Shown here one piece after another: positions 15,725-56,603 of a stretch of 64,000 bases of DNA. The notes under the pieces are model-generated. The model saw only the letters and a list, made by a program, of their open reading frames with translations. It was not told the DNA's origin and did not search any database. The stretch comes from an uncultured Candidatus Binatia bacterium (GTDB taxonomy: Bacteria; Desulfobacterota; Binatia; UBA9968; JAJDTQ01), in contig OZ219754.1 of assembly GCA_964291295.2 (NCBI GenBank), forward strand, positions 1,056,001-1,120,000. The letters run 5' to 3'. A program made the translations under genes and the position numbers. Each line of letters begins with the position of its first letter. Position 1 is the stretch's first letter.

Positions 15725-15821
15725 CGGCGTGCGCCGCGGAAAATGCCGCAAGTTCCTGTTGGCGGTATTGAAGAACGGGAACCGATGGACGATTCACTGT
15801 TTGAATCTCTAGAATGTCCTT

Positions 15822-16664
15822 ATGGTTGAAATCAACAAAATTCATAAGGCAGATACCTTTGCCGTATTGCATCAGATAGAAGATGATTCCATCGATCTGG
15901 TTGTTTGTGATGGGCCTTATGGAGTGACGGTAAACGAATGGGACAGGATTGACGGCATCCAGGAATTCAATTTGAAACTTGTCAAGTTGTTCTCTTCCAA
16001 AATGAAGATGGGAGCCGCCCTGTATCTTTTTGGAAAACCCGATTGTATTGATTTTATTGATTACCGTCCGTTTCTCAGCCTGAAACGAAAAATCGTCTGG
16101 TATCAACCAGGTCGACTTGCCCAGGGTAGAATAAACTATACGAACAATTACGATGTGATCTGCTATTTCATCAAAGGGAAAGGGGCGAGAGCCTTCAATC
16201 TGGATGATATCCGGATTCCTCAGCTTGTCGAGTTGAGTCATCGGCAGCGGTGTGAACGGGTCCCGTCCGTTACCAATGGCAGATTCGGCAAAACCAGGTT
16301 CAATGGGAACGGAAAGAACCCGGGGGATGTCTGGGGGGATATCAAACAACTCACTTACAAATCAAAGGAACTTGTGAGTCGCGATACTCTGAATACCATC
16401 CAGAAACCGGAGAAGCTTATCGAGAGACTTGTCAAAGCCAGTTCCAATGAAGGGGATCTGATTCTCGATCCGTTTGCAGGGGTTGGCACCTGTCCTTTGG
16501 TATGCAGGAAATTGAACAGAAATTTCATAGGAATTGAACAGAAGGAGGATTTTGTTCGAAAGGCAAATCAGAGATTGTCCGATTATGCTCAATCATTGGC
16601 AGGTGTCCATGAAACGCAAAATTCATTCTCATATGATTCGCTTGATCATCAAGGCGGCAAATGA
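15822..16664 (+). CDS. Site-specific DNA methyltransferase (N4/N6, beta-type motif order)
   Basis: DGPY catalytic motif near the N-terminus, GDVW, QKP, LDPFAGVG near the C-terminus; AT-rich island. Confidence 0.92.
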   Translation: MVEINKIHKADTFAVLHQIEDDSIDLVVCDGPYGVTVNEWDRIDGIQEFNLKLVKLFSSKMKMGAALYLFGKPDCIDFIDYRPFLSLKRKIVWYQPGRLAQGRINYTNNYDVICYFIKGKGARAFNLDDIRIPQLVELSHRQRCERVPSVTNGRFGKTRFNGNGKNPGDVWGDIKQLTYKSKELVSRDTLNTIQKPEKLIERLVKASSNEGDLILDPFAGVGTCPLVCRKLNRNFIGIEQKEDFVRKANQRLSDYAQSLAGVHETQNSFSYDSLDHQGGK

Positions 16665-17117
16665 AGCTCGAAAATCAGGTATTGTCAACTTGCTCCAACC
16701 GGGCTTGGTGAAGGAGATGATAATTGCGGACCTCTTGGTCATAAGCTGATTGTTTCAAAAAGAGATGCGGATGCGTGTTCATTTTTCGATGAACATGAAA
16801 AATATGAATACCTTTCGTGTTTGGAGGGAGGGTCGGGTCAGCTTGACAGAATGTTCAGTAATCCTCCTGAAAAAAGAGGGGATTCACTCCACAGAATTAC
16901 AAGAAATTCCATGTTTTATCTTGCTGTGTTCTACGGAGACAACCGGACAAGATGTAAAATCATATATGAAATCAGGGTGGACGATGTTCTGAATGAGGCC
17001 AATCGCCAACTTGATGCCAGTCGAAACGACATATCTCATATTGGTTTTTCAGTAGATTGGGCAAGAAGCAAGGGCAAGGTTGTTCATGAAGACAAGACAT
17101 CTTTGCCAGGGCTATAA
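16609..17117 (+). pseudogene. Putative PvuII-like restriction endonuclease with frameshift at about 16737
   Basis: MKRK...GIVNLLQPGLVKEMIIADLL joins GHKLIVSKRDADA...YEYLS...DISHIGFSVDWARSKGKVV if one G is added in TTGGTCAT; overlaps the MTase 3' end. Confidence 0.65.
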
Positions 17118-17318
17118 TCCCCAGGATTTTTGCAGAACGGATATCCACCAGAGTCCCAGTTCCCAATTCGTGACCCATGATGGAACGAGGCGGCACATTT
17201 CCGGAATTTCGGACGAAAGTCTGGCCGTGTCCCCCGTCCGCCGCATCCCGAAGCGTCCTGTGAGTCACGCTCCCGGGAGCCTGTCCGGACGACGCTCCGG
17301 CCTCTTTGGATTCCCGAA

Positions 17319-18350
17319 ATGGCCATCGGCATCATAGGCGCGGGCGGCTGGGGAACGGCGCTGGCTGTCCTCCTGTGCCGGCGCCACCATCGGGTGGCCC
17401 TGTGGTGCCATTCCGCGGACACTTTCGCGCGGATGCGGGAGACCGGCGAGAACGCCGTCTACCTGCCCGGCGTCAGGTTGCCGGAGCGCCTGGAGGTCAC
17501 CCGTTCGCTGGAAAACGCGGTGCGCGGCCGCGAACTGCTCATCGGCGTGACGCCGTCCCACTTCCTGCGCGAGGTCATGGGCCGGGCGGCTCCCTACGTG
17601 GCGCCCGAAGCCATCGTCGCGTGCGGCTCCAAGGGAATCGAGGAGTCGACCTTGATGACCATGGGCGGCGTTCTGGAGGAGATCCTGGGTCGCCCGGAGC
17701 GGCACGCGTTCCTGTCCGGACCGACTTTTGCCCTGGAGGTGGCCCGGGGGCGGCCCGCCGCCATCACCGTGGCAAGCCGCGACCGGGAGGTGGCCGCCCG
17801 GGTGCAGCGGAGCCTCGGCTCTCCGGAGTTCCGGGTCTATACGTCCACCGATGTGGTGGGCGTCCAGATGGGCGGCGTGATCAAGAACGTCATCGCCATC
17901 GCCGCGGGCGTCAGCGACGGCCTGGAGCTCGGCCACAACGCCAGGGCCGCGCTCATCACCCGGGGGTTGGCCGAGATGATCCGCCTGGCCGTGAAGATGG
18001 GCGCCGAGCCGGCCACCCTCTCCGGCCTTCCGGGCCTTGGCGACCTCGTGCTCACCTGCACCGGCCAGCTGAGCCGCAACCGCGGGGTCGGCCGCGAGCT
18101 GGGCCGGGGGCGCCCGCTTGCGGAAGTGGTCGGTGCAACCCGGGCGGTGGCGGAGGGTATCCGCAATACCCGCTCCGTGCGCCTCCTGGCCGGGAGTCAT
18201 CATGTCGAGATGCCCATCGTGGAGCAGATGTACCGCGTGCTCTACGAGGGCAAGGATCCCATGCAGGCCGTCCGCGACCTCATGGGCCGGACCCTGAGGC
18301 CGGAGGCCGATGAAGAGTCGGCTGCCGGTCTCTTCCCCTCGGGGGATTGA
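17319..18350 (+). CDS. gpsA: NAD(P)H-dependent glycerol-3-phosphate dehydrogenase
   Basis: GAGGWGTALA, SGPTFA, KNVIAIAAG, GLGDLVLTC, SRN. Confidence 0.97.
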   Translation: MAIGIIGAGGWGTALAVLLCRRHHRVALWCHSADTFARMRETGENAVYLPGVRLPERLEVTRSLENAVRGRELLIGVTPSHFLREVMGRAAPYVAPEAIVACGSKGIEESTLMTMGGVLEEILGRPERHAFLSGPTFALEVARGRPAAITVASRDREVAARVQRSLGSPEFRVYTSTDVVGVQMGGVIKNVIAIAAGVSDGLELGHNARAALITRGLAEMIRLAVKMGAEPATLSGLPGLGDLVLTCTGQLSRNRGVGRELGRGRPLAEVVGATRAVAEGIRNTRSVRLLAGSHHVEMPIVEQMYRVLYEGKDPMQAVRDLMGRTLRPEADEESAAGLFPSGD

Positions 18351-18428
18351 CGGGATTCCGCCCGCCGCAAATTGACAAGCCATCCGCCGTGTGCTTGAAA
18401 TAGAACACCGAAAGATGAAGGTGCGGAA

Positions 18429-18590
18429 ATGAAACGGACGTATCAACCAAGCAATCTCAGGCGAAAGAGAACGCACGGTTTCTTCGCGCGAATGGAGACC
18501 CCCGGCGGACGCAACGTGCTGAGGCGCCGGAGGGCCAAGGGAAGAAAGCGGTTGACCGTCGTCATCCCACCGAAGGGTCCTCGCACCTAG
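18429..18590 (+). CDS. rpmH: 50S ribosomal protein L34
   Basis: Translated by hand: [22 protein letters not shown]...[12 protein letters not shown]. Confidence 0.97.
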
Positions 18591-18599
18591 GACGGGCTG

Positions 18600-18974
18600 T
18601 TGTCCGTTGCCCGCGAGGGTTTCCCCAGGGAAGCCCGCCTGACCAGACGTTCCGACTTCCTGCTGCTGTCCCGCAGGGGCAGGAAGGCCTACGCGCCGCA
18701 CTTCATTATCATCCGACGAGACAACGACCACTTGGGCAGGCGGCTGGGAGTCACGGTCAGCGCCAAGGTGGGGAAGGCGGTGGTGCGCAACCGCGTCAAG
18801 CGGGCGTTGCGCGAGTTCTTTCGCCGCGGGCGGGAGCACTTCAAGCCCGACATGGATATGGTCATCATTGCCCGCCGGGGAGCGGGTGAGTTGAGTCACG
18901 CGGCCATGACCGCGGAGCTTCGCAAGCTGGTCGGCTCCGGCGTCCGGCGCGACGCGGGCCCGCCGCCTCGGTGA
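18600..18974 (+). CDS. rnpA: Ribonuclease P protein component
   Basis: [21 protein letters not shown] (RNR motif); follows rpmH. Confidence 0.95.
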
Positions 18975-18978
18975 CCCC

Positions 18979-19200
18979 ATGACGACCATGGCCGGCACCG
19001 CCGTGCGCGTCTGCATCAGGGCCTACCAGCGGTTTCTCTCACCGCTGCTGCCGCGCACCTGCCGGTACCATCCGACATGTTCCGCCTACGCGTTGCAGGC
19101 GGTGCACCGCCACGGCGTGGTCAAGGGCCTTGGCTTGGGTGCGTGGAGGCTCCTGCGCTGCAATCCGCTTACAGACGGAGGGTACGACCCGGTTCCATAG
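18979..19200 (+). CDS. yidD: Membrane protein insertion efficiency factor
   Basis: [10 protein letters not shown]...RCNP...GGYDPVP. Confidence 0.95.
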
Positions 19201-19206
19201 GTATCC

Positions 19207-20826
19207 ATGGAAAAGCGAGCCTTCATAGCAGTCATCTTCTCGATTCTCATCATCATCCTGTACCAGGAGTACGTGAGGCGGTTCCATCCGCCGGCGCCGC
19301 CGCCCGCCCGGGAGGAGACCGCGTCCGGCCCGGGGAAGGCGGCCCCCGCGCCGCGGGTGACGCCTCCAGTGCCAGCCTCGGCTCCCGCCGTGGAGACTGC
19401 CCGGACGGTCCCGGTGCGGGATGTGACGGTGGAGACCCCCGACTATATCGCCCGCTTCACCAATCAGGGAGCCCGGCTCAAGAGCTTCCGCCTGAAGCGG
19501 TACCGTTCAGGAGTGGCCGCCGGCAGCCCGTTGATCGAAATGGTCTCTCCCGGGCCGGGGATGGAATACCCCCTGGGGCTCCGTCTCGACGACACGCCCG
19601 CGGGTACCGATCAGGCGCTGGTCTACGAAGTCCGGGGCGCGGACCTGAGTCTGAAGGAAGGCGGTGCCGGGAGCCTCGTCTTCGTCGGTGCGACGCCGTC
19701 CGGCCGCCGCGTCGTCAAGCAGTTCGACTTCAGCGGCTCCAGCCATGCGGTGGAGGTGGAAGTGTCGATGGCGGGTTCGCCGCAGGGCGCCACGCTGCTC
19801 TTCACCACCGGCGGCGAGAACAAGGGAGTCAAGGGCGATGCCTTGTTCGAGGGTGTCATCGCGTTGCGCCAGGGGGAACTGACGCGCGAATGGCCGGACG
19901 ACATCGAAGGCCGGGTGAATTTCAACGCGCCGCTTTCATGGGCCGGCTTCGGCTACACCTATTTCGTTTCCGCGCTCATCCCGGCGGAAGGCGTCGAGGC
20001 CGATGCCACCGTGATGCCGGGCCCCGGCCGGGCGCGAGGGTTTGTCCTGGAGGTCCGCGGCCGGGTTCTCCCGGCCGCGGAGCGTGTTGCCCGCTACCGG
20101 CTCTTCATGGGCCCCAAGGTGCTCAGTCTGCTCAAGTCCTTCGACCGGGGTCTCGAGGAGTCCATCGACTTCGGCTACTTCGCCTTCATCTCGGTGCCGA
20201 TGCTTCAGGCGCTGCATTTCTTCCAGACGTACACGGGCAACTACGGCCTCGACATCATCCTGCTTACCCTTGTCATCAAGCTGCTGTTGTGGCCGCTGAC
20301 GCAGAAGAGCTTCGTTTCCATGAAGCGGATGCAGAAGCTCCAGCCGCAGATGCAGCGTCTCAAGGACAAGTTCGGGGACGACAAGCAGCGCCTGAACAAG
20401 GAGATGATGGATCTCTACAAGCGGAACAAGGTGAATCCGTTCGGGAGCTGTCTGCCCATGCTCCTGCAGTTCCCTTTCTTCATTGGCTTCTACAACGCGT
20501 TGCTGACACCCATCGAGTTGCGTCACGCCAGCTTCCTGTGGATCAAGGATCTGTCCCGCCCGGACTGGGAATCGCTCCCCTTCTCGGCCTTCGGTTACGA
20601 CGTGGGCATTCCCGTGCTGGTGCTGCTCATGGGAGCGAGCATGTTCATTCAGCAGTGGATGTCGCCCGCTGTGGGCGACCCCAACCAGCGGCGCATGATG
20701 ATGCTCATGCCGCTGATCTTTACCGTGATCTTCGTGAGCTTTCCGTCGGGACTCACGATCTACTGGTTCGTGAACAATATCCTGAGCATCGCCCAGCAAT
20801 ACCTGATCAACCGGAAGGAGCGTTGA
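19207..20826 (+). CDS. yidC: Membrane protein insertase
   Basis: N-terminal TM, periplasmic domain, NYG, CLPMLLQFP, PSGLTIYW. Confidence 0.97.
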   Translation: MEKRAFIAVIFSILIIILYQEYVRRFHPPAPPPAREETASGPGKAAPAPRVTPPVPASAPAVETARTVPVRDVTVETPDYIARFTNQGARLKSFRLKRYRSGVAAGSPLIEMVSPGPGMEYPLGLRLDDTPAGTDQALVYEVRGADLSLKEGGAGSLVFVGATPSGRRVVKQFDFSGSSHAVEVEVSMAGSPQGATLLFTTGGENKGVKGDALFEGVIALRQGELTREWPDDIEGRVNFNAPLSWAGFGYTYFVSALIPAEGVEADATVMPGPGRARGFVLEVRGRVLPAAERVARYRLFMGPKVLSLLKSFDRGLEESIDFGYFAFISVPMLQALHFFQTYTGNYGLDIILLTLVIKLLLWPLTQKSFVSMKRMQKLQPQMQRLKDKFGDDKQRLNKEMMDLYKRNKVNPFGSCLPMLLQFPFFIGFYNALLTPIELRHASFLWIKDLSRPDWESLPFSAFGYDVGIPVLVLLMGASMFIQQWMSPAVGDPNQRRMMMLMPLIFTVIFVSFPSGLTIYWFVNNILSIAQQYLINRKER

Positions 20827-20881
20827 GGGGCGGCGGCCGGCTGAGCCGGGACGGATGCGCCCCGTGGAGGAGAGGTTTGTC

Positions 20882-21757
20882 ATGAAGCAAGTGGAAACGG
20901 AAGGAGAGACCCTTGACCAGGCCATCACCAGGGCGCTGAATCTGTTGGGGGTCGAGCGGGACAAGGTTTCCCTGGATATTCTGGCTGAACAGAAAATGGG
21001 GCTGCTCGGTTTCGGCCGCCAGAACCCGCGGGTGCGCGCCACCATCCGGGACGCGGTGGTGCCGGAGGAGGATGCCGGAAACAAGGATGATGCCGGAAAC
21101 AGCCGCGCTGCGGACGAGCCTGTCGGCGAACCGGCGGCGAGGGTGTCCCCGGCGGTGGAGCCTGCCGCGGTGGAGCCTGCCATGGATGAGGGCGTCGCCG
21201 GCGAGCCCGAGGAAGGCGAGCCGGTCGAGGAGTTTCCGCAGACGGCTCAACGCATTGCGGAGGTTCGGGCGGTCAGCGTCGAGGTGCTGACGAAGATACT
21301 CGGGCTTATGGGCATGGATGCCGAGGTGGTGGTCAACCCGGGTACGGATTCTTCGGAGTTCGTCCTGGACATTCAGGGCGACAGCAGCGCGCTCCTCATC
21401 GGCCACAGGGGCCAGACCCTGGAGTCCCTCCAGCACATCGTCGGCCGTATCGTGGCGGAAAGGGTCGGGGCCGGCGCTCCCAAGCCTGTCGTCGACGCGG
21501 AAGACTACCGCGGAAGGCGGGTGCGGTCCCTGGAGGACATGGCGCTGCGCATGGGCGAGCAGGCCAAGCGCAGCCGGAAGACCCAGGGGATCGACACCCT
21601 CAGCGCCCGCGAGCGGCGCATTGTCCACATGGCCCTCAGGGACGACCCGTGGCTCACCACCCGGAGCCTCGGCCAAGGCGCCTGCCGGCGGCTCCTGATC
21701 ATCCCCGAAGGGGATCGCAAGGCATTGGAAACCGACCCGGCAGGCGACGGTTCGTGA
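20882..21757 (+). CDS. jag: RNA-binding protein Jag/KhpB (Jag_N, KH, R3H)
   Basis: LIGHRGQTLESLQ, ERRIVHMAL; follows yidC; start at ATG 20882 with SD. Confidence 0.92.
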   Translation: MKQVETEGETLDQAITRALNLLGVERDKVSLDILAEQKMGLLGFGRQNPRVRATIRDAVVPEEDAGNKDDAGNSRAADEPVGEPAARVSPAVEPAAVEPAMDEGVAGEPEEGEPVEEFPQTAQRIAEVRAVSVEVLTKILGLMGMDAEVVVNPGTDSSEFVLDIQGDSSALLIGHRGQTLESLQHIVGRIVAERVGAGAPKPVVDAEDYRGRRVRSLEDMALRMGEQAKRSRKTQGIDTLSARERRIVHMALRDDPWLTTRSLGQGACRRLLIIPEGDRKALETDPAGDGS

Positions 21758-21770
21758 TGCCGGTGGTGCA

Positions 21771-21824
21771 TTGATTCCGGCGAATCCCGGTTTATAATGT
21801 GTAGTTGACCGGCTGACCGGTCAA
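21771..21824 (+). promoter_or_regulatory. Sigma70 promoter plus palindromic operator upstream of TetR gene
   Basis: TTGATT-N16-TATAAT (21771-21798); TTGACCGG-ctga-CCGGTCAA at 21805-21824. Confidence 0.75.
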
Positions 21825-21832
21825 GGAAAGCC

Positions 21833-22432
21833 ATGCCCATCGTTGTCGACAAGGAACGCAAGCGCGCGGAGATCCTGGAAGCGGCCATGACCGTCGTGGC
21901 CCAGAAGGGTTTTCATCACTCCAAGATGGAGGATGTGGCCAGTGCCGCCAGGATCGGCAAGGGAACCATCTACGAATACTTCGAGAGCAAGCACCAACTG
22001 CTCCAGGCGCTTCACGGTTACATGCTGGGCAAGCTCAAGGAATACTACGAGGAGAAGTTGCGGGGCATCGAGGAACCGCCGCAGATCATTGCGGGGTTCC
22101 TGGCCGCCGCCCTCGCAAGCTTCCGCCAATGGGAGCCCTTCTTCTACGTATTCTGCGACGTCTGGGCGGAGGCGGGCCGGGACGAGCAGCAGAGCCTCCT
22201 GCGCACGCAGTTGCGGGCCGCCTACCGATCCTCCATCAACGATCTGGTCCGGGTGATCGAGGCGGGCGTGGCCGGCGGCTTTTTCCACTGCGACCAGCCC
22301 AGGCTCGCGGCCGAGCATCTGCTGGCTTGCGTCGACGGGCTGGCGCTGCACTGGCTGTACGACCCGGAGGTCTTCGACCTGGAAGCGATGACGGAAGCCC
22401 TTACGCGGGCGGTGATGAGGAGTCTGCAATGA
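21833..22432 (+). CDS. TetR/AcrR family transcriptional regulator
   Basis: HTH ILEAA...DVASAARIGKGTIYEYFESK. Confidence 0.95.
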   Translation: MPIVVDKERKRAEILEAAMTVVAQKGFHHSKMEDVASAARIGKGTIYEYFESKHQLLQALHGYMLGKLKEYYEEKLRGIEEPPQIIAGFLAAALASFRQWEPFFYVFCDVWAEAGRDEQQSLLRTQLRAAYRSSINDLVRVIEAGVAGGFFHCDQPRLAAEHLLACVDGLALHWLYDPEVFDLEAMTEALTRAVMRSLQ

Positions 22433-32271: not shown

Positions 32272-32590
32272 GGCGGTTGATCTCTCCCATTGCGCCGGGT
32301 TGTCAGAAACGTGGAACCCGTCAGGAACATGGAGTCCGGCATCGGCTTCCGGGCTCGCCCTTGCAGCAAGGTAACAGGAATGGTCGGGCAGTGTAAGGAC
32401 GCCGGCCGGGCGCGGGGCGGGGGAAGGCGGTGTTTCGGCGGCAGATTTCTACGGGACTTGTATCGCGGGGCTTGTATCGCAGGTTACCCGGATCCCCGCA
32501 CCGCGGACCCTGCCGAAAACACCCTGGTCATCCGCTTCAAAGCCGTCCGCCAGCCGGAGCAGCGGTCCCTTGGGGTGCGGAGACGGTTTG

Positions 32591-32619
32591 TTGACCGGGA
32601 ATGGCTTTTTGGGTATAGA
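32591..32619 (+). promoter_or_regulatory. Sigma70 promoter of nuo operon
   Basis: TTGACC-N17-TATAGA. Confidence 0.55.
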
Positions 32620-32628
32620 GAGGACTCT

Positions 32629-32676
32629 GGAAAAGATCGTGAAAAAGATCGTGAAAAAGGTCGTGAAAAAGATCGT
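32629..32676 (+). repeat. 12-bp tandem repeat x4 (GAAAAAGATCGT)
   Basis: Read directly; units differ from the consensus by at most 1 nt. Confidence 0.95.
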
Positions 32677-32742
32677 GAATTTCTGAAAGTTTATTGACTT
32701 CTCTATCTTGCTTCTCTTTTTCCCTGTCTTGCACGGAGACTC

Positions 32743-33120
32743 ATGCTTTTCGACTTTGCCAGCGTACTGGTTTTCACGTTGTTGGGGGCGGCCTTCGTCT
32801 GGGTCAACCTGCTGATCGGCCGCCTGCTGCGGCCTTCCAATCCCCAATTCCGAAAGCTCTCCACCTATGAATGCGGCGAACCGGCGTCCGGGAGCGCCTG
32901 GGTCAACTTCAACGTCCGGTTCTACTTCATCGCTCTCATCTTCATCATCTTCGAGGTGGAGATCGCTTTCATCTTCCCGGTGGCCGTGGTCTTCCGCGAC
33001 TGGCTTCAGAACGACGCGGGGCTCTTCGCGTTCGGTGCCGTCGCCGTCTTCACCCTCATCGTGTTCCTGGGTCTCATCTACGACTGGTGCAAGGGCGACC
33101 TGGAGTGGGTGAAGAACTAG
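32743..33120 (+). CDS. nuoA: NADH-quinone oxidoreductase subunit A
   Basis: YECG, FIIFEVE, KGDLEW. Confidence 0.96.
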   Translation: MLFDFASVLVFTLLGAAFVWVNLLIGRLLRPSNPQFRKLSTYECGEPASGSAWVNFNVRFYFIALIFIIFEVEIAFIFPVAVVFRDWLQNDAGLFAFGAVAVFTLIVFLGLIYDWCKGDLEWVKN

Positions 33121-48107: not shown

Positions 48108-48925
48108 GGCGCCCCTTTCCCGCCGGGAGGGTTGGCGGCGGTTTCCCGCCCGGTCGGGCCGGACGGCAGCCTGAAAAGGGTGCGGGCGTTGCGGGTGCAG
48201 GCGTTGGCGAGCGCTTCGACGCCGACCCCCCGGACCCGGGCCAGGGTCTCGGCCACGAAGCGGACATGGGCGGGCTCGTTGCGTCGGCCCCGCAAGGGGA
48301 CCGGTGCCAGGAACGGCGCGTCGGTCTCCATGAGGAGGCGGTCCAGCGGCACCCAGCGGGCGATGTCCCGCAGCGCCCCGGCGTTCTTGAAGGTGACGAT
48401 GCCGGAGAACGACAGGTAGAATCCCAGGTCGAGGAATGTCCGCGCCGCGGCCGCGTCGCTGGTGAAGCAGTGGATCACCCCCGTCGGTCCTCCGCCGTTC
48501 CGAAGCGTCTCCGCCACCTCGCGGTCCGACTCGCGGTTGTGCACCACGATTGGCAGCCGCGTCTCCGCCGCCAGCGCCACGAAGCGCTCGAACAAGTCCC
48601 GTTGCACCTGGCGGGGCGAGTGGTCGTAGTGGAAGTCGAGGCCGGTCTCACCGATGGCCACCACATCCGGATGCGCGGCGAGGTTGCGCATCCGGTCCAT
48701 GTCCTCCGTGCTCACGTCCCTGGCGTCGTGCGGGTGCATTCCCACGGTGGCGTAGACGTCCGCGTGCGCCTCCGCCAACCGCACCGCCGCGTCGTTGCTG
48801 GAAAGATCCCCCGCACCGCCCACGACGATCAGGGTTTCGACGCCGGTCTCCCGCGCCCGGGCCAGCACTTCTTCGCGGTCGTCGTCGAATGCCGCGGTCT
48901 GTATGTGACAGTGGGTGTCGATCAT
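48104..48925 (-). CDS. tatD: TatD family deoxyribonuclease
   Basis: DTHCH, GMHPH, IGETGLD, HCF, ETDAP; start ATG 48925. Confidence 0.95.
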   Translation of the reverse strand: MIDTHCHIQTAAFDDDREEVLARARETGVETLIVVGGAGDLSSNDAAVRLAEAHADVYATVGMHPHDARDVSTEDMDRMRNLAAHPDVVAIGETGLDFHYDHSPRQVQRDLFERFVALAAETRLPIVVHNRESDREVAETLRNGGGPTGVIHCFTSDAAAARTFLDLGFYLSFSGIVTFKNAGALRDIARWVPLDRLLMETDAPFLAPVPLRGRRNEPAHVRFVAETLARVRGVGVEALANACTRNARTLFRLPSGPTGRETAANPPGGKGAP

Positions 48926-49085
48926 GGTTGCGGGCACCGGGTCGATGCGCGTCGTCCGCCGGAGCCGGCGCTTACGCCCCGGGTCGCCGCCGCGTGATTC
49001 CCGCTCCGGATACTGTTCGCCCCGGCGGGAATGGGGCCGCGCGGCGGGCGTGACAGCTGAGGGGAACGCCGCGCCTGTCCACCCG

Positions 49086-50633
49086 TCACTTTCCGTGGTC
49101 TTCCACCTCTTCGATCCGGGGGAAGAGCATTGCCGGCGGCCTGACCGGGTGGCCTTGGGGAAAGGAACCTCCCCACCCGGACCGCGTCGCCTCCTCGGCG
49201 GAGAGCCCCAGTAGGTTCCGGACCGCCCTGCCGGTCTCCGGCAGGAACGGTGCCAGCAGATCCCCGGTGACCCGCACGCACTCCAGCAGATGGTGCAGGA
49301 TCTCGCCCACCCGGGCCTTCCGGTGGGGATCCTTGACCAGGGTGAACGGTGCGGTCTGCACGATGTACTGGTTGGCCTTGTCCAGCGTCGCGAAGATCGA
49401 TTCGAGGGCGCGGTGAAAGGCCAGTTCCTCCATGTGCCGGTCCACATTGGCCGCCGCCTCGGTGAAGGCCTCCCTGAGCTCCCGATCCTCGGGCCGGCTG
49501 CCGTCGCCCAAGGGCTGGACCACACCGCCGAAGTAGCGCTGCTGCATGGCCAGCACGCGGCTCACCAAGTTGCCGAAATTGTTGGCCAGGTCGGCATTGA
49601 CCCGATTGATGAACGCCGCCATCGAGAAGGCGGCGTCCTGGCCGAACACCATTTCCCGCAGCAGGTAGTAGCGGAACGCGTCCATGCCGTAGCGTTCCTT
49701 CATGTCCAGCGGACGGATGACGTTGCCCAGGCTCTTGGACATCTTGCCGCTGTCCATGATCCAGTAGCCGTGGACGTTGAGCCGGTGGTAGAGGGGCAGG
49801 CCCGCGGCCATGAGCATGGTGGGCCAGTAGATGGCGTGGGGCTTGAGGATGTCCTTGGCGATGAGGTGGTTGCAGCCGGGCCAGTAGGCGTCGAAGCAGT
49901 CCGCGCCCTTGTGCTCCAGTGCGCTCACGTAGTTGATGAGCGCGTCGAACCACACGTACGTGACGTAGTCCCCGTCGAAGGGCAGCGGAATGCCCCACTG
50001 GAGCCGGCTCCGGGGCCGGGAGATGCACAGATCCTCCAATGGCTCCCGCAGGAACGACAGCACCTCCGTGCGATACCGCGGCGGCGTCACGAACCCCGGG
50101 TTCTTCTCCAGGTGCTCGACCAGCCGGTCCTGGTACCGGCTCATGCGGAAGAAATAGTTCTTCTCCTGGATGTACGCGGCCGTGGTCTGGTGGTCCGGAC
50201 ACTTGCCGTCCTGCAGCTCCTTCTCGGTGTAGAATCGCTCGCAGCCGTAGCAGTAGTATCCGCCGTACTCCCCGAAGTAGATGTCGCCGGCGTCGTGGAT
50301 GTGCTGGAGGATCCGGCGGACCGTGGCTTGGTGGTAGTCGTCGGTGGTACGGATGAAGTGGTCGTAGGCGATGCCGCAGGTGTCCCAGGTGGAACGGAAC
50401 AGGCCGCTGATGCGGTCCGCGTAGGCCTTGGGGTCGATGTTGTCCGCGGCCGCCGCCTGAACGATCTTGTCGCCGTGCTCGTCCGTGCCGGTGAGCAGGT
50501 ACGCATCCCTGCCGCGCGCACGGTGGTAGCGCTTCAGCGTGTCGGCGATGAGGGTGGTGTAGGTGTGGCCGAGATGCGGCTGGGCGTTCACATAGTAGAT
50601 CGGGGTGGTGAGGTATATGCGGTCCATGCGCAT
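49086..50633 (-). CDS. metG: Methionine--tRNA ligase (short form)
   Basis: HLGH, TGTDEHG, YVWFDAL, KMSKS. Confidence 0.98.
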   Translation of the reverse strand: MRMDRIYLTTPIYYVNAQPHLGHTYTTLIADTLKRYHRARGRDAYLLTGTDEHGDKIVQAAAADNIDPKAYADRISGLFRSTWDTCGIAYDHFIRTTDDYHQATVRRILQHIHDAGDIYFGEYGGYYCYGCERFYTEKELQDGKCPDHQTTAAYIQEKNYFFRMSRYQDRLVEHLEKNPGFVTPPRYRTEVLSFLREPLEDLCISRPRSRLQWGIPLPFDGDYVTYVWFDALINYVSALEHKGADCFDAYWPGCNHLIAKDILKPHAIYWPTMLMAAGLPLYHRLNVHGYWIMDSGKMSKSLGNVIRPLDMKERYGMDAFRYYLLREMVFGQDAAFSMAAFINRVNADLANNFGNLVSRVLAMQQRYFGGVVQPLGDGSRPEDRELREAFTEAAANVDRHMEELAFHRALESIFATLDKANQYIVQTAPFTLVKDPHRKARVGEILHHLLECVRVTGDLLAPFLPETGRAVRNLLGLSAEEATRSGWGGSFPQGHPVRPPAMLFPRIEEVEDHGK

Positions 50634-50637
50634 CCCT

Positions 50638-51624
50638 TCAACTCAACAGCATGGGAACAAGGCCCTCCAGGACCATGCGCCGGTTGCGGTTCCGGTGAAT
50701 GGCACTGGTGACATTGTCGATCTCGGACAGCGCCGCGGTCGTCTGCTCCAGGCTCCGGGCCGCCGCGGCACCCCGGATCTGCTCCAGCAGATCCCGGTTG
50801 CAGACCGTGGTGGCCGAGCCCGTGACCTGGAGCACCATGATGTCGCGCAGCCACCCCCGGACCCAGTCCAGGAATTTCAGTGTCTTCTCCCGGTCGCCGC
50901 CCATCTCCTCCGCCAGCGCCGTGATGCCGCGCATGTCGTCGGACGAAAGCGCCGCCAGCTTGCGAAGGCACTCCCGCCTGCGGTCAAGCAGCTCCGCCTC
51001 GTCGCCCTCGAGGGCGGTGCCGAGGCTGCCTTGGCTGAGGGCCGCCAGCAACAATGCGCGGTCTTCGGCGCAACCCTTGCGCCGGGCCACGACGGCGGCC
51101 ACCTGTTCCAGCGCCAGGGGGAGGAAATGGAGCCGGAGGCAGCGGGACAGCACCGTCGGCAGGACCCCCCCGGTGCTCTCGGCGATGAGGATCAGCAGGG
51201 CATCCGCCGGAGGTTCCTCCAGGGTCTTGAGGAGCGCATTCTGCGCGTGCAGATTCATGAGCGTCAGCGGGTCGATGACGGCGATCTTCTTCCTCCCGGT
51301 GAAGCGGCGCAGCACCAGTTGCCGCTGCAGCGCCCGCACCTGCTCGATGGTGAGGTCGCGCTTGCCCTTGCGCGGTTGGAGCCAGTGGACGTCCGGGTGG
51401 TTCCCGCCGCGAATGCACAGGCAGCTCGGACACTCGCCGCAGGCGTCGCCATCCGCGCTCCCGCACTGGATGGCGGCCGCCAGGGCGGTGGCCACGGTGC
51501 GCTTGCCCGTGCCTTCCGGCCCGGCAAATAGCCAGGCGTGGTGCAGGCGGTCGCGGCGGACCGCCCGCCGCAGCAGTTCGATCCGGCCCTGGTGGCCGAT
51601 GATGTCACGGAACCGCAGCATCAC
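50638..51624 (-). CDS. holB: DNA polymerase III subunit delta'
   Basis: GPEGTGK, CGECPSC, HPD, NALLKTLEEP, SRC; follows tmk. Confidence 0.95.
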   Translation of the reverse strand: MMLRFRDIIGHQGRIELLRRAVRRDRLHHAWLFAGPEGTGKRTVATALAAAIQCGSADGDACGECPSCLCIRGGNHPDVHWLQPRKGKRDLTIEQVRALQRQLVLRRFTGRKKIAVIDPLTLMNLHAQNALLKTLEEPPADALLILIAESTGGVLPTVLSRCLRLHFLPLALEQVAAVVARRKGCAEDRALLLAALSQGSLGTALEGDEAELLDRRRECLRKLAALSSDDMRGITALAEEMGGDREKTLKFLDWVRGWLRDIMVLQVTGSATTVCNRDLLEQIRGAAAARSLEQTTAALSEIDNVTSAIHRNRNRRMVLEGLVPMLLS

Positions 51625-52301
51625 GTCTCCGTCGCCGCGATGCGGCCGCTCTGGCGGCTGGTCTGGTTCGAGAGGAGCCGTTGGTCGATGATCCGCCGCA
51701 GCTTCTCCTGAATGGCCATCACCGGGCCGTCCGCCGGCACCACCACGCAGCGGGAGGGTTCGGCCTCGGCCAGCGCCAGGAACCCCTCGCGCACCCGGCG
51801 TTGAAAGACCACCCCTTCAGCCTCGAACCGGTTCAGGCGCGCGGCCTGGCTTTTCTGCCGGTTGGCCGCCCGGGCCAGCGCCGCCTCCACCGGGCAGTCC
51901 AGGATCAGGGTGAGCGCCGGCATGGTGCCGCCGGTGGCCACGAGATTCAGACGGCGCAGCAGTGCCAGGTCCATGCCGCGGCCGTAGCCTTGGTACGCCA
52001 GCGTCGAATCCACGAAGCGGTCCGACACCACCAGCCTGCCCTGTTCCAGGGCGGGTCTGACGACCTCGAGAACGTGCTGTGCCCGGTCCGCCAGGATCAG
52101 GAACAGCTCGGTCTCGTCCGAAAGGGACTCGGGCCGGCCCTCGAGGAGGAGCTTGCGGAGTTGTTTCCCGAGCCGGGTGCCCCCCGGCTCGTGGGTCCGC
52201 AGCCGGGGCACGCCGCGAGCGCCCAGATATTCGTCGAGCAGTGCGGCCTGCCGCGATTTTCCCGATCCGTCACACCCTTCGATGGTCACGAAACGCAGCA
52301 T
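51621..52301 (-). CDS. tmk: Thymidylate kinase
   Basis: EGCDGSGKS, EPGGT, DRFVDSTLAYQG; start ATG 52301. Confidence 0.96.
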   Translation of the reverse strand: MLRFVTIEGCDGSGKSRQAALLDEYLGARGVPRLRTHEPGGTRLGKQLRKLLLEGRPESLSDETELFLILADRAQHVLEVVRPALEQGRLVVSDRFVDSTLAYQGYGRGMDLALLRRLNLVATGGTMPALTLILDCPVEAALARAANRQKSQAARLNRFEAEGVVFQRRVREGFLALAEAEPSRCVVVPADGPVMAIQEKLRRIIDQRLLSNQTSRQSGRIAATET

Positions 52302-52403
52302 CCCACGCCTTCCCGGACAGTATTGCACAAGAAGGAGAGGGCTGCCCAACCGGCGGACGGCGGCGCGGCGGGCGCGCCCGTCCGGCCATGCGGAAGCCGG
52401 TTC

Positions 52404-52481
52404 CGATACGGCAGGTCGATACGGCAGGTCGATACGGCAGGTCGATACAGCGGGTCGATATGGCAGGTCGATATGGCAGGG
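52404..52481. repeat. 13-bp tandem repeat x6 (CGATAYGGCAGGT) enclosed by an inverted repeat
   Basis: Read directly; GCCGGTTCCG 52396-52405 pairs with CGGAACCGGC 52497-52506. Confidence 0.95.
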
Positions 52482-52585
52482 TCAGGTCGGGTCCGCCGGA
52501 ACCGGCCTGCATGGAAGCCCCGTCAACGGGAAGTACGGCGCCGCAGTCCCGCTCTCTGCCAGAACGACGGTTTCGGCGCTTGCGG

Positions 52586-53191
52586 TCACGGGCCCAGATT
52601 GGCGGGCGTCACCACCGAGCGCAGGGTGTGCGTGCGGTAGCCGTCGTTCCTCGGGTAGCGCGGGTCCCGCCGGCCCGTTCTCGTGGTCACGCTGATCCGC
52701 AGTTGTCGTATCCGGTTTGCCACCGCCGTGACGTTGCCGGCGGCGTCGAGGTATTCCACGGTGAAGCCTTCCACGTCCTCGGCCAGGGGCTGTCCGCCGC
52801 CGCCCGTGTCGCGCCGGAGCATCCGGCGGTCCGGGTCGTGAAAGTAGACGACGCGTTCGTTGGCGTCCGCCAGGTCGCCGTCACCGTTGTGATCCGCGAA
52901 GAGGATCAGACGCGCCGGGTCGTAGGTCAGCCCGACCACGCCCGCCTGTACCGGGTCGTACCCGGCGGCGCGCGCCTCCCGGATCACCGTGGTCATGGCT
53001 GCCCGGGCATTCTGTTGCATGGCGCCCACCTGTTCCTGCAGGGCGTAGGTGGTGAGTTGTCCGGTAAAGCTGGTGGCCACCGCCGCCAGCAGTATTCCCT
53101 GGATCGCCAGGACCACGAGCAGTTCGATGAGGGTGAATCCCCGGCCGCCGCCCCCGGCTGCCGGCCCGGGGCCGCACGGCCGCGGCGTCAC
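52586..53191 (-). CDS. PilW-like type IV minor pilin
   Basis: Prepilin motif RG|FTLIELLV, QNARAAM...IREARAAG; GTGA coupling to the upstream gene. Confidence 0.85.
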   Translation of the reverse strand: MTPRPCGPGPAAGGGGRGFTLIELLVVLAIQGILLAAVATSFTGQLTTYALQEQVGAMQQNARAAMTTVIREARAAGYDPVQAGVVGLTYDPARLILFADHNGDGDLADANERVVYFHDPDRRMLRRDTGGGGQPLAEDVEGFTVEYLDAAGNVTAVANRIRQLRISVTTRTGRRDPRYPRNDGYRTHTLRSVVTPANLGP

Positions 53192-53577
53192 CGGTCCACC
53201 AGGGTCCGGAGGACCGCCGCGCGCGCGTCCCGGGACCGGTACACCGTTACGGTGACGGTGTTCAGGCCGGCCTCCGGCACGTCTTGCCGAACCTCGGTGA
53301 CGCGCTTGTAGCGGGAAAATCCCGGCATCGAACCATAGTTCTCCGTGGTGACGGCCATGCCTCCCGAGCCGCGCCCCTTGACGGTCTCGATCCGGTCCTG
53401 GGCCAGCAGGGTGGCGACGCCGCGGTCGCGGCTCCTCAGGTTTCCCTCGATGACGCCGATGGTGAGTCGCCCCAGGCCCAGCAGTCCGGTGGACAGGATC
53501 AGCATCGCCACCAGCAGTTCGATCATGGAAAAGCCCCGGCAGGACAGGCGGTGCCGCTCCATCGTCCATCCGTTCAC
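53188..53577 (-). CDS. PilV-like type IV minor pilin
   Basis: RG|FSMIELLVAMLILSTGLLGL; start may be 53577 (GTG) or 53562 (ATG). Confidence 0.85.
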   Translation of the reverse strand: MNGWTMERHRLSCRGFSMIELLVAMLILSTGLLGLGRLTIGVIEGNLRSRDRGVATLLAQDRIETVKGRGSGGMAVTTENYGSMPGFSRYKRVTEVRQDVPEAGLNTVTVTVYRSRDARAAVLRTLVDR

Positions 53578-54041
53578 CGGACCCGCACGCGGCCGGCGAT
53601 GCTGATGCTGATGCGTTTCGCCCCGCCGGCGTTGGTCAGCGTGATGGTGGCGAGATTGCTGGCGGTGCCCCGGGGACTGAAGATCGGGTTGTTGGTGGAA
53701 CGCATCGCCACGTCCCCATAGTCCTCCCGCAGGTCTCTGGTGACGGTCCATTCTCCGGGGTCCACGGCGCCGTCGTTGTCGGTATCGTCGAGGAGCCGGT
53801 ACTGATGGTCGTTCAGGAAGAAGATCCGGTGCCGGTTGTTGCGCTGGATGGCCTTCATGCGAGCCCACATGAGGTCCCCCGTCAGTTGCCGCACCGCGCC
53901 GTTGAGGCGATGCCTGGGCAGAACCTTCAGATAGCCCGGCACTGCGATGGCGATCATGATTCCGGCCAAGGCCAGGGTGATCAGTTGACCCAGCAACGAG
54001 AAGCCGGCGGTCTGGCGGAGTGCTCCCGGCATCGGCGTCAT
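53574..54041 (-). CDS. FimT/GspH-like pseudopilin
   Basis: AG|FSLLGQL..AVP, ARMKAI, FSPRG, GRVR C-terminus. Confidence 0.82.
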   Translation of the reverse strand: MTPMPGALRQTAGFSLLGQLITLALAGIMIAIAVPGYLKVLPRHRLNGAVRQLTGDLMWARMKAIQRNNRHRIFFLNDHQYRLLDDTDNDGAVDPGEWTVTRDLREDYGDVAMRSTNNPIFSPRGTASNLATITLTNAGGAKRISISIAGRVRVR

Positions 54042-54874
54042 CCTGCGCGGGACAGGTGAAACAGTGCGCCCATGCATAGAAAAGGGGCAAACGGCAAGGG
54101 CGTGGTGAGCGAGACTTCCTCCCTGAAGACCATGAGACCGACGCCCCAGAGGGTTCCGGCGAGGGCGCTCGAGAACAGGATGGCGGGCACGGCTTCCCAG
54201 CCGGCGAAGGCGCCGATCATTGCCAACAGCTTGATGTCGCCGCCGCCCACGCCGTCCCGGCCCGTCACGGCGCGGTAGCCCCTGGCGGTGCCCAGGAGCA
54301 GGCCTGCGCCCGACAGCAGGCCCAGGAGGGAGCCGAGCGGCGACGGCCAGTGCTGGATCGACAGGGCCGGGGCGCACCACGACAGGGCGAGGGCGCAGAC
54401 CGTGCCCCATGCGCTGATGACATCCGGGATGAGGCCCGTTTCGAAGTCGATGACGGCCGCCGCCAGCAGCGCGCCGGCGAAGGTCAGCCGGACGACCAGG
54501 GAAAGGCCGAGGCCGAATCGGCGGGTCCATGCCAGCGTCAGTGCGGCGGTGCAAAGCTCCACCAGGAAATAGCGCGGGGGAATGCGGACGCCGCACTGGC
54601 CGCAGCGGGCGCGCAGCAGCAGGTAGCCCGCCAGGGGCACCAAGGCCCGGAGCGGTATCGGCCTGTTGCATGAGCGGCAGTGCGACGCGGGTACGAGCAC
54701 CGACTCGCCCACCGGCAGTCGGGTGATGCAGAGGTTCAGGAAGCTGCCAAGACAGGCTCCGAGAACCAGGGACAGAATATCGAAGGACAGACAGTCGAAG
54801 GGCGGGATTTCAAAGGACGGTTGTTCAAGGAACAGCAGCTTCTGTGCGGGTCCCGGTGCCGAGTTTCCGACCAT
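54038..54874 (-). CDS. pilD: Prepilin peptidase (A24)
   Basis: GSFLN, SHCRSC and CGQC zinc motifs, catalytic ID and GGGDIK, PFAPFL. Confidence 0.93.
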   Translation of the reverse strand: MVGNSAPGPAQKLLFLEQPSFEIPPFDCLSFDILSLVLGACLGSFLNLCITRLPVGESVLVPASHCRSCNRPIPLRALVPLAGYLLLRARCGQCGVRIPPRYFLVELCTAALTLAWTRRFGLGLSLVVRLTFAGALLAAAVIDFETGLIPDVISAWGTVCALALSWCAPALSIQHWPSPLGSLLGLLSGAGLLLGTARGYRAVTGRDGVGGGDIKLLAMIGAFAGWEAVPAILFSSALAGTLWGVGLMVFREEVSLTTPLPFAPFLCMGALFHLSRAG

Positions 54875-54922
54875 GCGGGAATAGTCGGCACCGGACCGTC
54901 AAACCGTAGAGTCCAGCAGTCG

Positions 54923-55174
54923 GTGCCGCGGAAGATTTTTGTGGGACAAAGATCCGCCAGAGTCCGGATGGGTGCAGGATGGGTGCGGGATTGTTGCGGA
55001 ATGGGCGTCGAATTCGCTCCCGATAATGGGACAAGGGCGGGGACTTCCGGCATTCCGGGCCAAGGAACGCGCAAGAGTCCGCGGGAAGGACCGCGTGGGA
55101 AGATTCGAGCAAAAGTCCGGGCGAAGGACCTCACATGGCCCCTGCCGGCCACCTGCCGAAGCGTCCCGCGGCGC
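54923..55174 (+). mobile_element. MITE-like element copy B
   Basis: Ends GTGCCGCGGAA / TCCCGCGGCGC; internal blocks align with 17125-17266 and with 56412-56603 (minus strand). Confidence 0.6.
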
Positions 55175-55180
55175 GGGCTG

Positions 55181-55993
55181 TCAGTCGGCCAGCATCTCTT
55201 TCTGCATCGGCGTCAGCGCATTGGCGCATCCCGTCATGCTGTTGCGGGTAACCAGCCCGGCCAGTTGCTCCTCGCTCCAACCCTCGGTTCCCTCCGGACG
55301 CCGGGGCACCACCAAGTAGCGGGTTTCGGCGGTGCTGTCCACCACCCGCACCTCGACAGACTCGGGCAGCTCCAGCCCCATCTCCTTCAGCACCCTGCGG
55401 GGGTCCACCACCACCCGGGTGCGGTAGTTGGTGCTCTTGTACCAGTCCGGGGGTTGGCCCAGCAGTTGCCGGGGGTAGCAGGAGCAGAGCGTGCACACCA
55501 CCACATGGTGCACCGATTCGGTGTTCTCCACCGCGATGAGCTGGTTGGCCGTGGACATGTCGATGCCCAGTTCACCGGCGGCGGCGATGCCGTCCTCGAA
55601 CAGACGCTTCCTGTACTCCGGGTCGGTCCAGGCCCGGGCCACCACCCGCGAGCCCTGATGCCACGAGACCGCATCGTTCTCGTCGATCTTGCGCCGCACC
55701 TCGTCGGTGCTGACGATGCCCTTTTCCCGCAACAGGTTGCCCAAGGCCAGCATCTGCTTCTCGAACGGCGTGTACACGTGTTCCCGCATGTCGATGGGGT
55801 TGTTGGCATGAAGCTGCTCGAACACGTCGTCGTGACTGTGGTCGTGGCCGTGCTTGACCTGCCGCACCTCGTCGGTGTTCAGCACCCCCCTCTCCTTCAG
55901 CAGGTCCGCTGTCGCGCGGGCGCGCCGTTCGAAATATCCCGGCCCCTGGTCCGTTGCCGGCTCGGTGTGTTCCTGCTGCGGTTCCCTGGCCAT
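55181..55993 (-). CDS. Cobalt-type nitrile hydratase alpha / thiocyanate hydrolase gamma-like subunit with N-terminal extension
   Basis: VCTLCSCYP metal motif, VVARAWTDP, RYLVVPRRPEGTEGW; SD before ATG 55993. Confidence 0.92.
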   Translation of the reverse strand: MAREPQQEHTEPATDQGPGYFERRARATADLLKERGVLNTDEVRQVKHGHDHSHDDVFEQLHANNPIDMREHVYTPFEKQMLALGNLLREKGIVSTDEVRRKIDENDAVSWHQGSRVVARAWTDPEYRKRLFEDGIAAAGELGIDMSTANQLIAVENTESVHHVVVCTLCSCYPRQLLGQPPDWYKSTNYRTRVVVDPRRVLKEMGLELPESVEVRVVDSTAETRYLVVPRRPEGTEGWSEEQLAGLVTRNSMTGCANALTPMQKEMLAD

Positions 55994-56015
55994 GAAGTCC
56001 CCCCTTGAAGCGCAT

Positions 56016-56306
56016 TCAGCGCGGTTCCAGCCACTGCTCGAAAATGTCCGCGTAGATCCTGTTGACACCTTCGGGTGCAGGCCGATCGTCCCACACGTGG
56101 GCCAGGTCGAACTCGATGGAGTACAGATTGGCCATGGGCAGACCGTCCTGGCCGAAGGAGAGCAATTCCGGATCCCGGAAGCGACCGCGGATATCCGCCA
56201 CCACGCCGCTCTTGCCCCTGAGATACTGGGGCGAGCGAACGTGGTGCCCCAAGGTCAACGTATCCCGGACTCGTACCGGATCGCCCGGCTTGTAGCGAAA
56301 ACTCAT
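56016..56306 (-). CDS. Nitrile hydratase beta C-terminal (SH3-like) domain / thiocyanate hydrolase alpha-like subunit
   Basis: GDPVRV, HVRSPQYLRGKSG, LYSIEF..VW, DIFEQWLEP. Confidence 0.88.
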   Translation of the reverse strand: MSFRYKPGDPVRVRDTLTLGHHVRSPQYLRGKSGVVADIRGRFRDPELLSFGQDGLPMANLYSIEFDLAHVWDDRPAPEGVNRIYADIFEQWLEPR

Positions 56307-56312
56307 CCCGGC

Positions 56313-56341
56313 AGTCTCATGCGTGACGAGGCGATTGTCAA
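56313..56341 (-). promoter_or_regulatory. Putative leaderless sigma70 promoter of the hydratase pair
   Basis: TTGACA-N17-GAGACT, 6 nt before ATG 56306. Confidence 0.5.
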
Positions 56342-56411
56342 GAACGTTCCAACGATACTGCCTGCGCGGAGTGCCGGAACCTCCGTGACGGTCCCCGGTC
56401 GCGCCTGCGCC

Positions 56412-56603
56412 GTGCTCGCGGGATGGGCGACGGCGGGGCGGCAGCGGATGGAGAGAAGTGTCCCGGTTTTCGTTCAGAATGCCGGAAACCCGCACCTTGC
56501 CCCATTATCGGACATGAATAATCGGGCATGAATTGTCGGACACGAATCGGGCGCCAAAGGGCACGTTGGTGGACCGCTGTCCCGCGAAAATCGTCCGCGG
56601 CGC
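56412..56603 (-). mobile_element. MITE-like element copy C, containing a 14-bp tandem repeat x3 (56507-56548)
   Basis: Minus strand GCGCCGCGGACGATTTTCGCGGGACA...CCGATAATGGGGCAAGG...TTCCGGCATTC...TCCCGCGAGCAC. Confidence 0.6.

Follow-up and report, generated by a model that had tools for sequence, protein, structure and literature searches.

The stretch analysed here (the window; 64,000 nt, G000:C1:1056001-1120000) belongs to contig 1 (C1, OZ219754.1) of the assembly GCA_964291295.2 of an uncultured Candidatus Binatia bacterium, hereafter G000 (3.70 Mb, 66% GC, three contigs, 99% complete). It contains three copies, A, B and C, of an intergenic repeat of about 178 bp. This repeat is very probably a MITE (a transposable element of the miniature inverted-repeat type), the ends of which are those of insertion sequences (IS) of the IS1182 family, ISKpn6 type, either derived from them or parasitic on them, and the CTAG target of which explains a fixed spacing to stop codons. 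Copy A lies between gyrA and gpsA and contains a DNA methylase cassette; copies B and C bracket a nitrile-hydratase-like operon between a prepilin-peptidase and a hydrolase gene. Positions without a prefix refer to the window, in which the following features were delineated:

15721..15724, plus strand: flank TTAG of copy A, in which the TAG at 15722-15724 is the stop codon of gyrA; corresponds to the CTAG target or duplication of the family
15725..15745, plus strand: detached left inverted repeat of copy A, profile positions ~1-24; 19-mer with 4 mismatches (C1:1071724)
15746..17118, plus strand: low-GC (41-53%) cassette within copy A; PF01555, E 1.2e-33
15822-16664, plus strand: N6/N4 DNA methyltransferase gene; PF01555, E 1.2e-33
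16609-17117, plus strand: frameshifted open reading frame (ORF) of the cassette, no family match
17119..17272, plus strand: rest of copy A including the right inverted repeat, profile positions 19-175; flank CCGG at 17273-17276
54914..55180, plus strand: copy B, full length, 267 bp, 70% identical to the consensus; left flank CCAG at 54910-54913
54966..55005, plus strand: 11-nt tandem array of 3.6 units in copy B (Tandem Repeats Finder, TRF)
55181..56307, minus strand: nitrile-hydratase-like two-gene unit; PF02979, 5e-78; PF02211, 1e-16; alpha and beta-N part at 55181-56068, beta-C part ending at 56016
56396..56609, minus strand: copy C, left end on the hydrolase stop codon, TAG 56612-56610
56507-56547, minus strand: 14-nt tandem array of 2.9 units in copy C (TRF)

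A BLAST search of the three stretches against the whole genome gave many further matches. When 13 further copies were aligned with their flanks, they formed a sharply bounded unit of about 178 bp. The first-round profile, built from these 13 copies without those of the window, gave 46 matches at E<1e-3 in the whole genome and found copy A with an E-value of 1.3e-24 (17123-17275), copy B with 9.2e-12 (54914-55058) and copy C with 2.9e-11/4e-10 (56611-56449, minus strand). The second-round profile search with nhmmer resulted in 48 matches, which represent 44 loci, all on contig 1, and improved the E-values to 3.1e-32 for A (17123-17273), 3.8e-24 for B (54915-55178) and 2.6e-14/4.1e-12 for C (56611-56441, minus strand). 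An earlier note on this DNA had described the three intergenic stretches as colinear; their homology is thereby established far beyond chance. The three sequence blocks it had pointed out are conserved columns of the family alignment, and the GYGCCGCGGRA motif it had given for the ends corresponds to the terminal inverted repeat's core. A weak fourth match it had mentioned at 32438-32464 does not belong to the family, as the region 32400-32500 gave no profile match even at E ≤ 100. Separately, about five tandem 12-nt units without relation to the MITE were seen at 32606-32680, in a lower-GC intergenic region upstream of an ORF that starts at 32743.

Near full length was found for 26 copies, with identities to the consensus of 58-97% (≥ 90% in 16 of the 26). 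The terminal inverted repeats comprise 19-20 nt with the pattern GGAGBCTGYGCCGCAGAAA, and the same ends are present in 24 near-full-length copies; directly flanking 24 near-full-length copies on both sides is CTAG or one of its one-step variants CCAG and CTGG. The inverted repeats form the closing stem of the fold of the repeat. The repeat is gene-less, and a tblastn search with the cognate transposase gave no match inside its copies. Outside G000, a BLAST search of the canonical copy against 40 relatives gave 0 matches, one relative of the repeat with 69% identity is present in G022, and two scans of metagenome contigs with family-specific inner motifs gave 0 matches each. The literature searched contained no paper describing this repeat family or any stop-codon rule for it. 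Two loci outside the window deviate from the simple picture. At G000:C1:849904-850447, a variant of 540 bp has a left end of good quality, to which ~430 bp of different sequence and then profile positions 59-174 are joined; it represents a longer relative or else a copy that has received an insertion. The copies C1:1211493-1211670 and 1270146-1270323 have a common right flank, and the same TAG stop codon ends a long ORF at both; gene and element seem to have been duplicated as a segment, hence, these are not independent insertions.

The window copies are old members of the family, about 70% identical to the consensus and grown by internal tandem duplication. Older character states are common to them and to a few further copies that have diverged. 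The statement of the earlier note that copy lengths differ through internal tandem units was correct: B and C exceed the 178-bp unit because of such units, which TRF delineates as an 11-nt motif repeated 3.6 times and a 14-nt motif repeated 2.9 times. The 11-nt array of copy B also varies between contigs: a contig of run X2, from another sample, has one extra unit. Run X3 has a 14-nt insertion near this array. A second right-end remnant at 56342-56395 gave no profile match.

The spacing of exactly 6 nt between a stop codon and the conserved core of the repeat, which had been noticed at three ends, was reproduced at each of them: the gyrA TAG occupies 15722-15724 and the core starts at 15731, the hydrolase TAG occupies 56612-56610 (minus strand) and the core starts at 56603, and the hydratase TGA occupies 55183-55181 (minus strand) and the core ends at 55174. 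Among 67 ends examined by script, for which a stop codon was counted if it closes an ORF of ≥ 80 codons with high GC content at third codon positions (GC3), 18 have a flank stop closing a long, GC3-rich ORF (16 TAG, 1 TAA and 1 TGA). Together with the gyrA and hydratase ends, which were out of the script's reach and were added by eye, 20 of 41 insertion loci (49%) lie on stop codons. The tetranucleotide CTAG is about six-fold depleted in G000 (376 observed vs. 2,455 predicted from trinucleotides). Of the CTAG that are not in repeat loci, 141 are stops, 154 are intergenic and 62 are coding according to a crude GC3-based gene model of ~79% coverage, by which the fractions of stop and non-coding CTAG are approximate. 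Stops thus make up 141 of the 295 non-coding CTAG (48%), which is indistinguishable from the 20 of 41 insertions (binomial p=1.0). Since the stop fraction of the insertions equals the stop fraction of the usable CTAG, the spacing reflects the choice of target and the survival of harmless insertions; it results from CTAG targeting and not from a functional coupling to the genes. Flanks not on a stop codon have mostly decayed to CCAG or CTGG, and flanks on a stop codon keep the TAG.

The position behind stop codons would also suit a selected regulatory or structural module of RNA or DNA, such as a terminator, an mRNA stabiliser, a small RNA or a protein-binding site, comparable to repetitive extragenic palindromic (REP) or Correia elements. 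Many copies would then lie in 3' untranslated regions, either strand gives a good fold (-70.8 and -79.4 kcal/mol, with z of about -4), and some inner blocks are kept in old copies. The stable fold, however, arises from the two inverted repeats pairing with each other, which those of any MITE do, and the covariation term of RNAalifold was +1.01, which means none, with a double change in 5 of 37 pairs over 18 copies. A search against Rfam gave nothing for the window at gathering score, nor for five copies at E ≤ 1. There is no orientation bias towards the upstream gene, with 8 left and 12 right ends facing it (p=0.50), and the repeat was not found by BLAST in the 40 relatives, apart from the 69% relative in G022. 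The recombination or regulatory module which the earlier note had offered as an alternative therefore receives no backing from Rfam, covariation or orientation, and such a selected module is very improbable, while the repeat may have a secondary, exapted effect on single genes.

Mobility of the repeat was examined by comparison with relatives. At C1:3396384, both flanks of which are conserved in the genus, G000 has CTAG-[element]-CTAG with the ATG of the next gene 10 bp further on; G010 and G012 have at the matching site a single GTAG stop, 10 bp and the ATG, without an element. This is a filled and empty pair with a duplicated target. At C1:2988339, the ortholog in G018 ends in CTAG, again without an element. 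A search of the 27 same-genus genomes gave no copies that are orthologous or conserved in position across the genus. In run X3, which stems from a different sample of the same study and represents a strain of ~95% identity, a contig of 2,569 nt joins position 56395 to 56608 with 255 letters on each side, and 30 other letters replace 212 nt of copy C. By eye, these 30 letters resemble both ends of C, which we read as an internal deletion of C. The joints 54053->55906 and 55495->55618 in contigs of other samples were set aside, as they have only 20 letters on one side.

The parent of the repeat, a non-autonomous mobile element as the earlier note had proposed, can now be named as an ISKpn6-like element of the IS1182 family. 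A scan for the end pattern, using one genome per species, gave at least 122 stretches of public genomes; titles of metagenome-assembled genomes (MAGs) among the matches listed include Acidobacteriota/Vicinamibacterales, Gammaproteobacteria, Chloroflexota, Longimicrobiales, Rhodothermales, Latescibacterota, Verrucomicrobiota and others. From these, 80 loci were fetched for analysis. The spacing of paired ends fell into two classes, 1,368-1,734 bp (29 cases) and 110-356 bp, mostly ~161 bp (28 cases), while 29 ends were without a partner found. A transposase 60-100% identical to that of locus L067 is encoded at 30 of the 80 loci. The transposases of L067 and L071 match the NCBIfam model of IS1182, NF033551, with 374 and 364 bits (cut-off 270), contain the Pfam domains DUF772, DDE_Tnp_1 and DDE_Tnp_1_6, and have the junctions CTA|GGAG...CTCC|TAG. 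The short elements in other MAGs have the same ends as the G000 MITE and differ inside. In these other genomes, CTAG is found beside 58 of 81 ends and 15 of 81 ends lie on a stop codon; the full-length IS of L067 is located directly behind an ORF of 273 amino acids (AA) ending there.

Within the genus, the end pattern is present in 13 of the 27 relatives, compared to 0 of 27 for the reversed control pattern. G012 has inverted pairs of ends 1,643 bp apart, one of which (L196) is an intact IS with CTAG flanks, and the C-terminus of its transposase matches the remnants in G000. The closest named element is ISKpn6, with 52% identity of the full-length transposase; its copy in plasmid NZ_KX348145.1 has CTAG on both sides and ends with 1-2 mismatches compared to the outer 16 nt of the MITE. 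The CTAG flanking the full-length IS of L067, L071, L196 and ISKpn6 is the target of the MITE. G012 additionally has six matches to the end pattern on one strand at C1:872115-872700, spaced ~71 bp or multiples thereof, which looks like a tandem array made of inverted-repeat sequence.

Intact IS1182 elements of ~1.6 kb with the same ends are thus present in G012 and in MAGs from numerous phyla, and G000 itself has fragments only. A remnant of 390 bp at C1:2331203-2331595 comprises a left end, which deviates at 1 of 19 positions, and after it the final ~40 codons of a transposase (DDE_Tnp_1_6); related transposase remnants are located at C1:24300-25074 and 656644-656856, and all matches to PF13751 in G000 are remnants. 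No pair of repeat ends in G000 encloses a transposase. Several candidates for a partner were rejected. The IS630-type fragments beside the copies at C1:555150 and 943869 are truncated genes without shared ends, the inverted repeats of the IS5-type element at C1:2332040-2333170 differ, a 1,186-bp IS (C1:1539368-1540553 and 2795677-2796862) has unrelated ends, and what lies between the inverted ends C1:955247/957314 is an ankyrin gene and no transposase. The 1,186-bp IS, which is of the DDE_Tnp_1 type, sits on the CTA|G flank of a solo MITE-type end; this IS and the IS5-type element, i.e., two other IS types of G000, are also found on CTAG-like sites.

The ends bear on a further possibility, namely a site-specific recombination site that captures cassettes, be it attC-like, Xer/dif-like or REP with a Y1 transposase. 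The repeat does border a nested methylase cassette and a relocated operon, as such a site would. Against this, its ends are identical to those of IS1182 elements with a DDE transposase, CTAG is duplicated with an empty site in relatives, the unit has 178 bp and is not a palindrome of 20-40 nt, and there is no integrase or recombinase beside the window copies, the REP-associated tyrosine (Y1) transposase not having been searched for. Capture by site-specific recombination is therefore hardly credible, even less so than a regulatory module.

The MITE, which remains the preferred interpretation, would have spread as follows. The transposase of an ISKpn6-like IS would recognise the ends common to IS and MITE and would insert the MITE into CTAG, whereby the target would be duplicated. 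As about half of the CTAG tolerating an insertion are C-TAG stops, copies would end exactly behind genes; the stop codon would be retained as one copy of the duplication and the conserved core of the repeat would begin 6 nt further on. The MITE would have been mobilised in trans by the IS transposase.

Several observations weigh against this interpretation. An intact cognate transposase was not found in the 99%-complete assembly, in which tblastn gave three fragments only (C1:24517-25074 and 2331240-2331368), and present mobility is unproven because only these fragments are left. The inside of the MITE is unlike the ends of full-length IS beyond ~20 nt, hence, "derived from" an IS may mean merely "borrowing the ends of" it. 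The duplication is 4 bp or TA within CTAG, both of which fit because ends and target are jointly palindromic. The flanks of the window copies are degenerate, with TTAG/CCGG for A, CCAG/(C)TGA for B and ATAG/CCGG for C. Finally, some internal blocks are kept in the oldest copies of the family alignment while linkers expand, and these conserved blocks could reflect a constraint, e.g., the binding of the transposase or of a host protein. As only decayed pieces of the cognate transposase remain, the family is probably immobile in G000 today and its burst over.

The link of the repeat to accessory genes was assessed with the 27 same-genus genomes. The genes gyrA and gpsA are adjacent in all 27, with 3 to ~370 bp separating the parts that match (the junction is distributed over two contigs in G016), and the methylase cassette is missing between them in all 27. 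In G000, the gap is 1,594 bp and consists of the left end of A, a low-GC stretch of 1.37 kb and the rest of A. The left piece aligns to profile positions 8-24 with 15 of 17 identical. Because the two pieces cover complementary parts of the profile (8-24 and 19-175), we conclude that the cassette was inserted into a resident copy A. Homologs of the cassette with 66-69% DNA identity are located elsewhere in G009 and G023. The ORF at 16609-17117, which overlaps the end of the methyltransferase gene, is interrupted by a single frameshift near 16737, and a Pfam search extended to E ≤ 1 gave it no family. That it encoded a restriction enzyme is a guess based solely on its position; had this been the cognate endonuclease, the methylase would today be an orphan.

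The same stop codon was used in another way in G010, in which a different palindromic element of ~100 bp is found at the gyrA stop and lengthens the reading frame; its outermost bases resemble those of the MITE and the rest does not. The target at the gyrA stop has hence been hit independently in two species. In several relatives, the gyrA-gpsA spacers (L168, L169, L171 and L172) contain, once or twice, a short GC-rich palindrome which is absent from the spacer of G000 and looks like a REP-type element of the genus.

At the second locus, the prepilin-peptidase and hydrolase genes are adjacent in 23 of the 27 relatives, with 105-301 bp between the matched parts. The hydratase operon is found in 23 of the 27 at another place, 76-85% identical to that of the window, and its old neighbourhood maps near C1:2743623 in G000 itself, with one flank only being traceable. 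In G000, the operon lies between the two genes, bracketed by B (plus strand) and C (minus strand), which are inverted relative to each other. The right end of B adjoins the TGA with which the alpha gene ends (55181-55183, minus strand), and homology with the operons of the relatives ends at ~56341, some 55 bp from the inner end of C. The outer flanks, CCAG and CTAT on the plus strand, are each one change from CTAG and not identical. In its layout, B-hydratase-C has the architecture of a MITE-bounded composite unit. For the proposal that copies B and C moved the operon as such a unit, the chance appears somewhat short of even.

Outside the window, C1:955247 provides a third case. There, a TAG stop codon is the exact point at which homology to all 27 relatives ceases, and an end of this type follows this codon; behind it is a gene of 430 AA with ankyrin repeats (Ank_2, 273 bits), and a matching right end is found 2.07 kb further on. 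The left end of C1:955247-957332 is tandemly doubled directly after the TAG stop and the right end is of the same IS1182 type, and this region may be a gene-carrying unit without a transposase.

Opposed to an active role is passive co-location, in which the element accumulates where foreign or moved DNA does so too, at permissive places, namely the ends of genes, intergenic CTAG and variable regions, B and C being insertions independent of the operon's move. CTAG and stop targeting alone suffices to put copies at gene borders. Compared to random sites, the surroundings of the 44 loci are not reduced in GC content (values below 0.55 in 3 of 44 vs. 4.7%, p=0.13), so no low-GC signal accompanies the family. 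In addition, B and C lack an identical duplication at their outer flanks, the gyrA stop was reused by a different palindromic element in G010, and the methylase cassette is nested in one copy and not bracketed by two. On the other hand, both breakpoints of the relocated operon coincide with ends of the element, at the alpha stop beside B and within about 55 bp of C, where the homology of the relatives ceases; B and C are inverted, like in composite transposons; and at C1:955247 the break in homology falls exactly on stop and end, with the ankyrin gene behind. Passive co-location is accordingly about as open as a coin toss, tilted slightly towards the negative.

Six loci were compared with the relatives in this way, resulting in one plain insertion (C1:3396384, into conserved synteny), one nested cassette, two clear synteny breaks and two loci with one or both flanks unmatched at the DNA level; having no matched control, this comparison is not a test. 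The linkage to accessory genes suggested in the earlier note therefore holds for the window's own cases, i.e., the methylase cassette in A and the hydratase operon between B and C, and is not shown as a general property, given the flank GC content and the plain insertion at C1:3396384.

MITEs of IS1182 partners and MITE-bounded composite units are already in print, according to the parts of the literature consulted. From Methanosarcina acetivorans, IS1182-derived MITEs with ISMac2 as partner have been described, with 160-169 bp and inverted repeats of 25-26 nt, one of which is listed with a 4-bp duplication (PMC3852290); the partner belongs to the same IS family and the length is similar to the 178 bp found here. 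Their host, however, is an archaeon, a stop-codon or CTAG pattern is not mentioned in the sections consulted, and the likeness is one of description. ISPse1 is described as an IS of the IS1182 family with a 4-bp duplication (PMC3281130). ISKpn6 has the same terminal inverted repeats and CTAG flanks as the MITE, which differs from it in being 178 bp long and gene-less, with an inside unrelated beyond the first ~20 nt. For the cyanobacterial MITE Nezha, the ends equal those of an IS known only in another species, and it was inferred to be mobile because related genomes have filled and empty sites (PMC3184786); as far as this description goes, the logic is the same as for the G000 repeat, and IS family, target and host are different.

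Composite units are represented by the integron mobilization unit, which moves with a transposase supplied in trans (Poirel 2009, via PMC3184786), and by TIME-COMPs, which are MITE-bracketed mobile units (PMC13367494). In what is reported of both, two gene-less inverted-repeat elements bracket a cargo as in B-hydratase-C. Compared to these published units, the cargo here is a housekeeping-type operon instead of a resistance gene, the partner IS is of a different family, the unit is known from its sequence alone and its flanks are not an identical duplication.

Among the other short repeats of bacteria, Correia elements (CREE) of Neisseria are short, have inverted repeats and a TA-containing target, form a long hairpin when transcribed and lie next to genes; promoters and processing by RNase III are documented for them. 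The G000 repeat resembles them in shortness, inverted repeats, a target containing TA, hairpin and gene adjacency, without any likeness in sequence. REP sequences and bacterial interspersed mosaic elements (BIME) are palindromes of 20-40 nt without duplication, whereas the repeat of G000 has 178 bp with inverted repeats and a duplication.

For annotation, the ~44 loci should be masked as a repeat family, and the stop codons beside them are real. A simple mechanism explains the 6-nt regularity and should apply to other GC-rich genomes with ISKpn6-like elements. An otherwise orphan repeat has been assigned a parent, the ends being common to an IS best known from clinical plasmids and to many uncultured phyla. 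A wider proposal, which we consider unlikely, is that the ISKpn6-like clade of IS1182 acts as a cross-phylum gene shuttle, comprising full-length IS, MITEs of ~160-180 bp and gene-carrying units with the same ends. If so, docking at CTAG would park cargo behind stop codons, where it would be read through from the upstream gene, and possible cargo in G000 would be the hydratase operon (B-C), the ankyrin gene (C1:955247-957332) and the methylase cassette (A). Overall, elements of this kind are ordinary, and a few cases are instructive, those at the borders of moved or foreign genes, where the repeat marks the exact border of a genome change: the nested methylase cassette, the bracketed relocated operon and the synteny break at the ankyrin gene. 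These three border cases and the cross-phylum spread of one set of ends are its more interesting sides.

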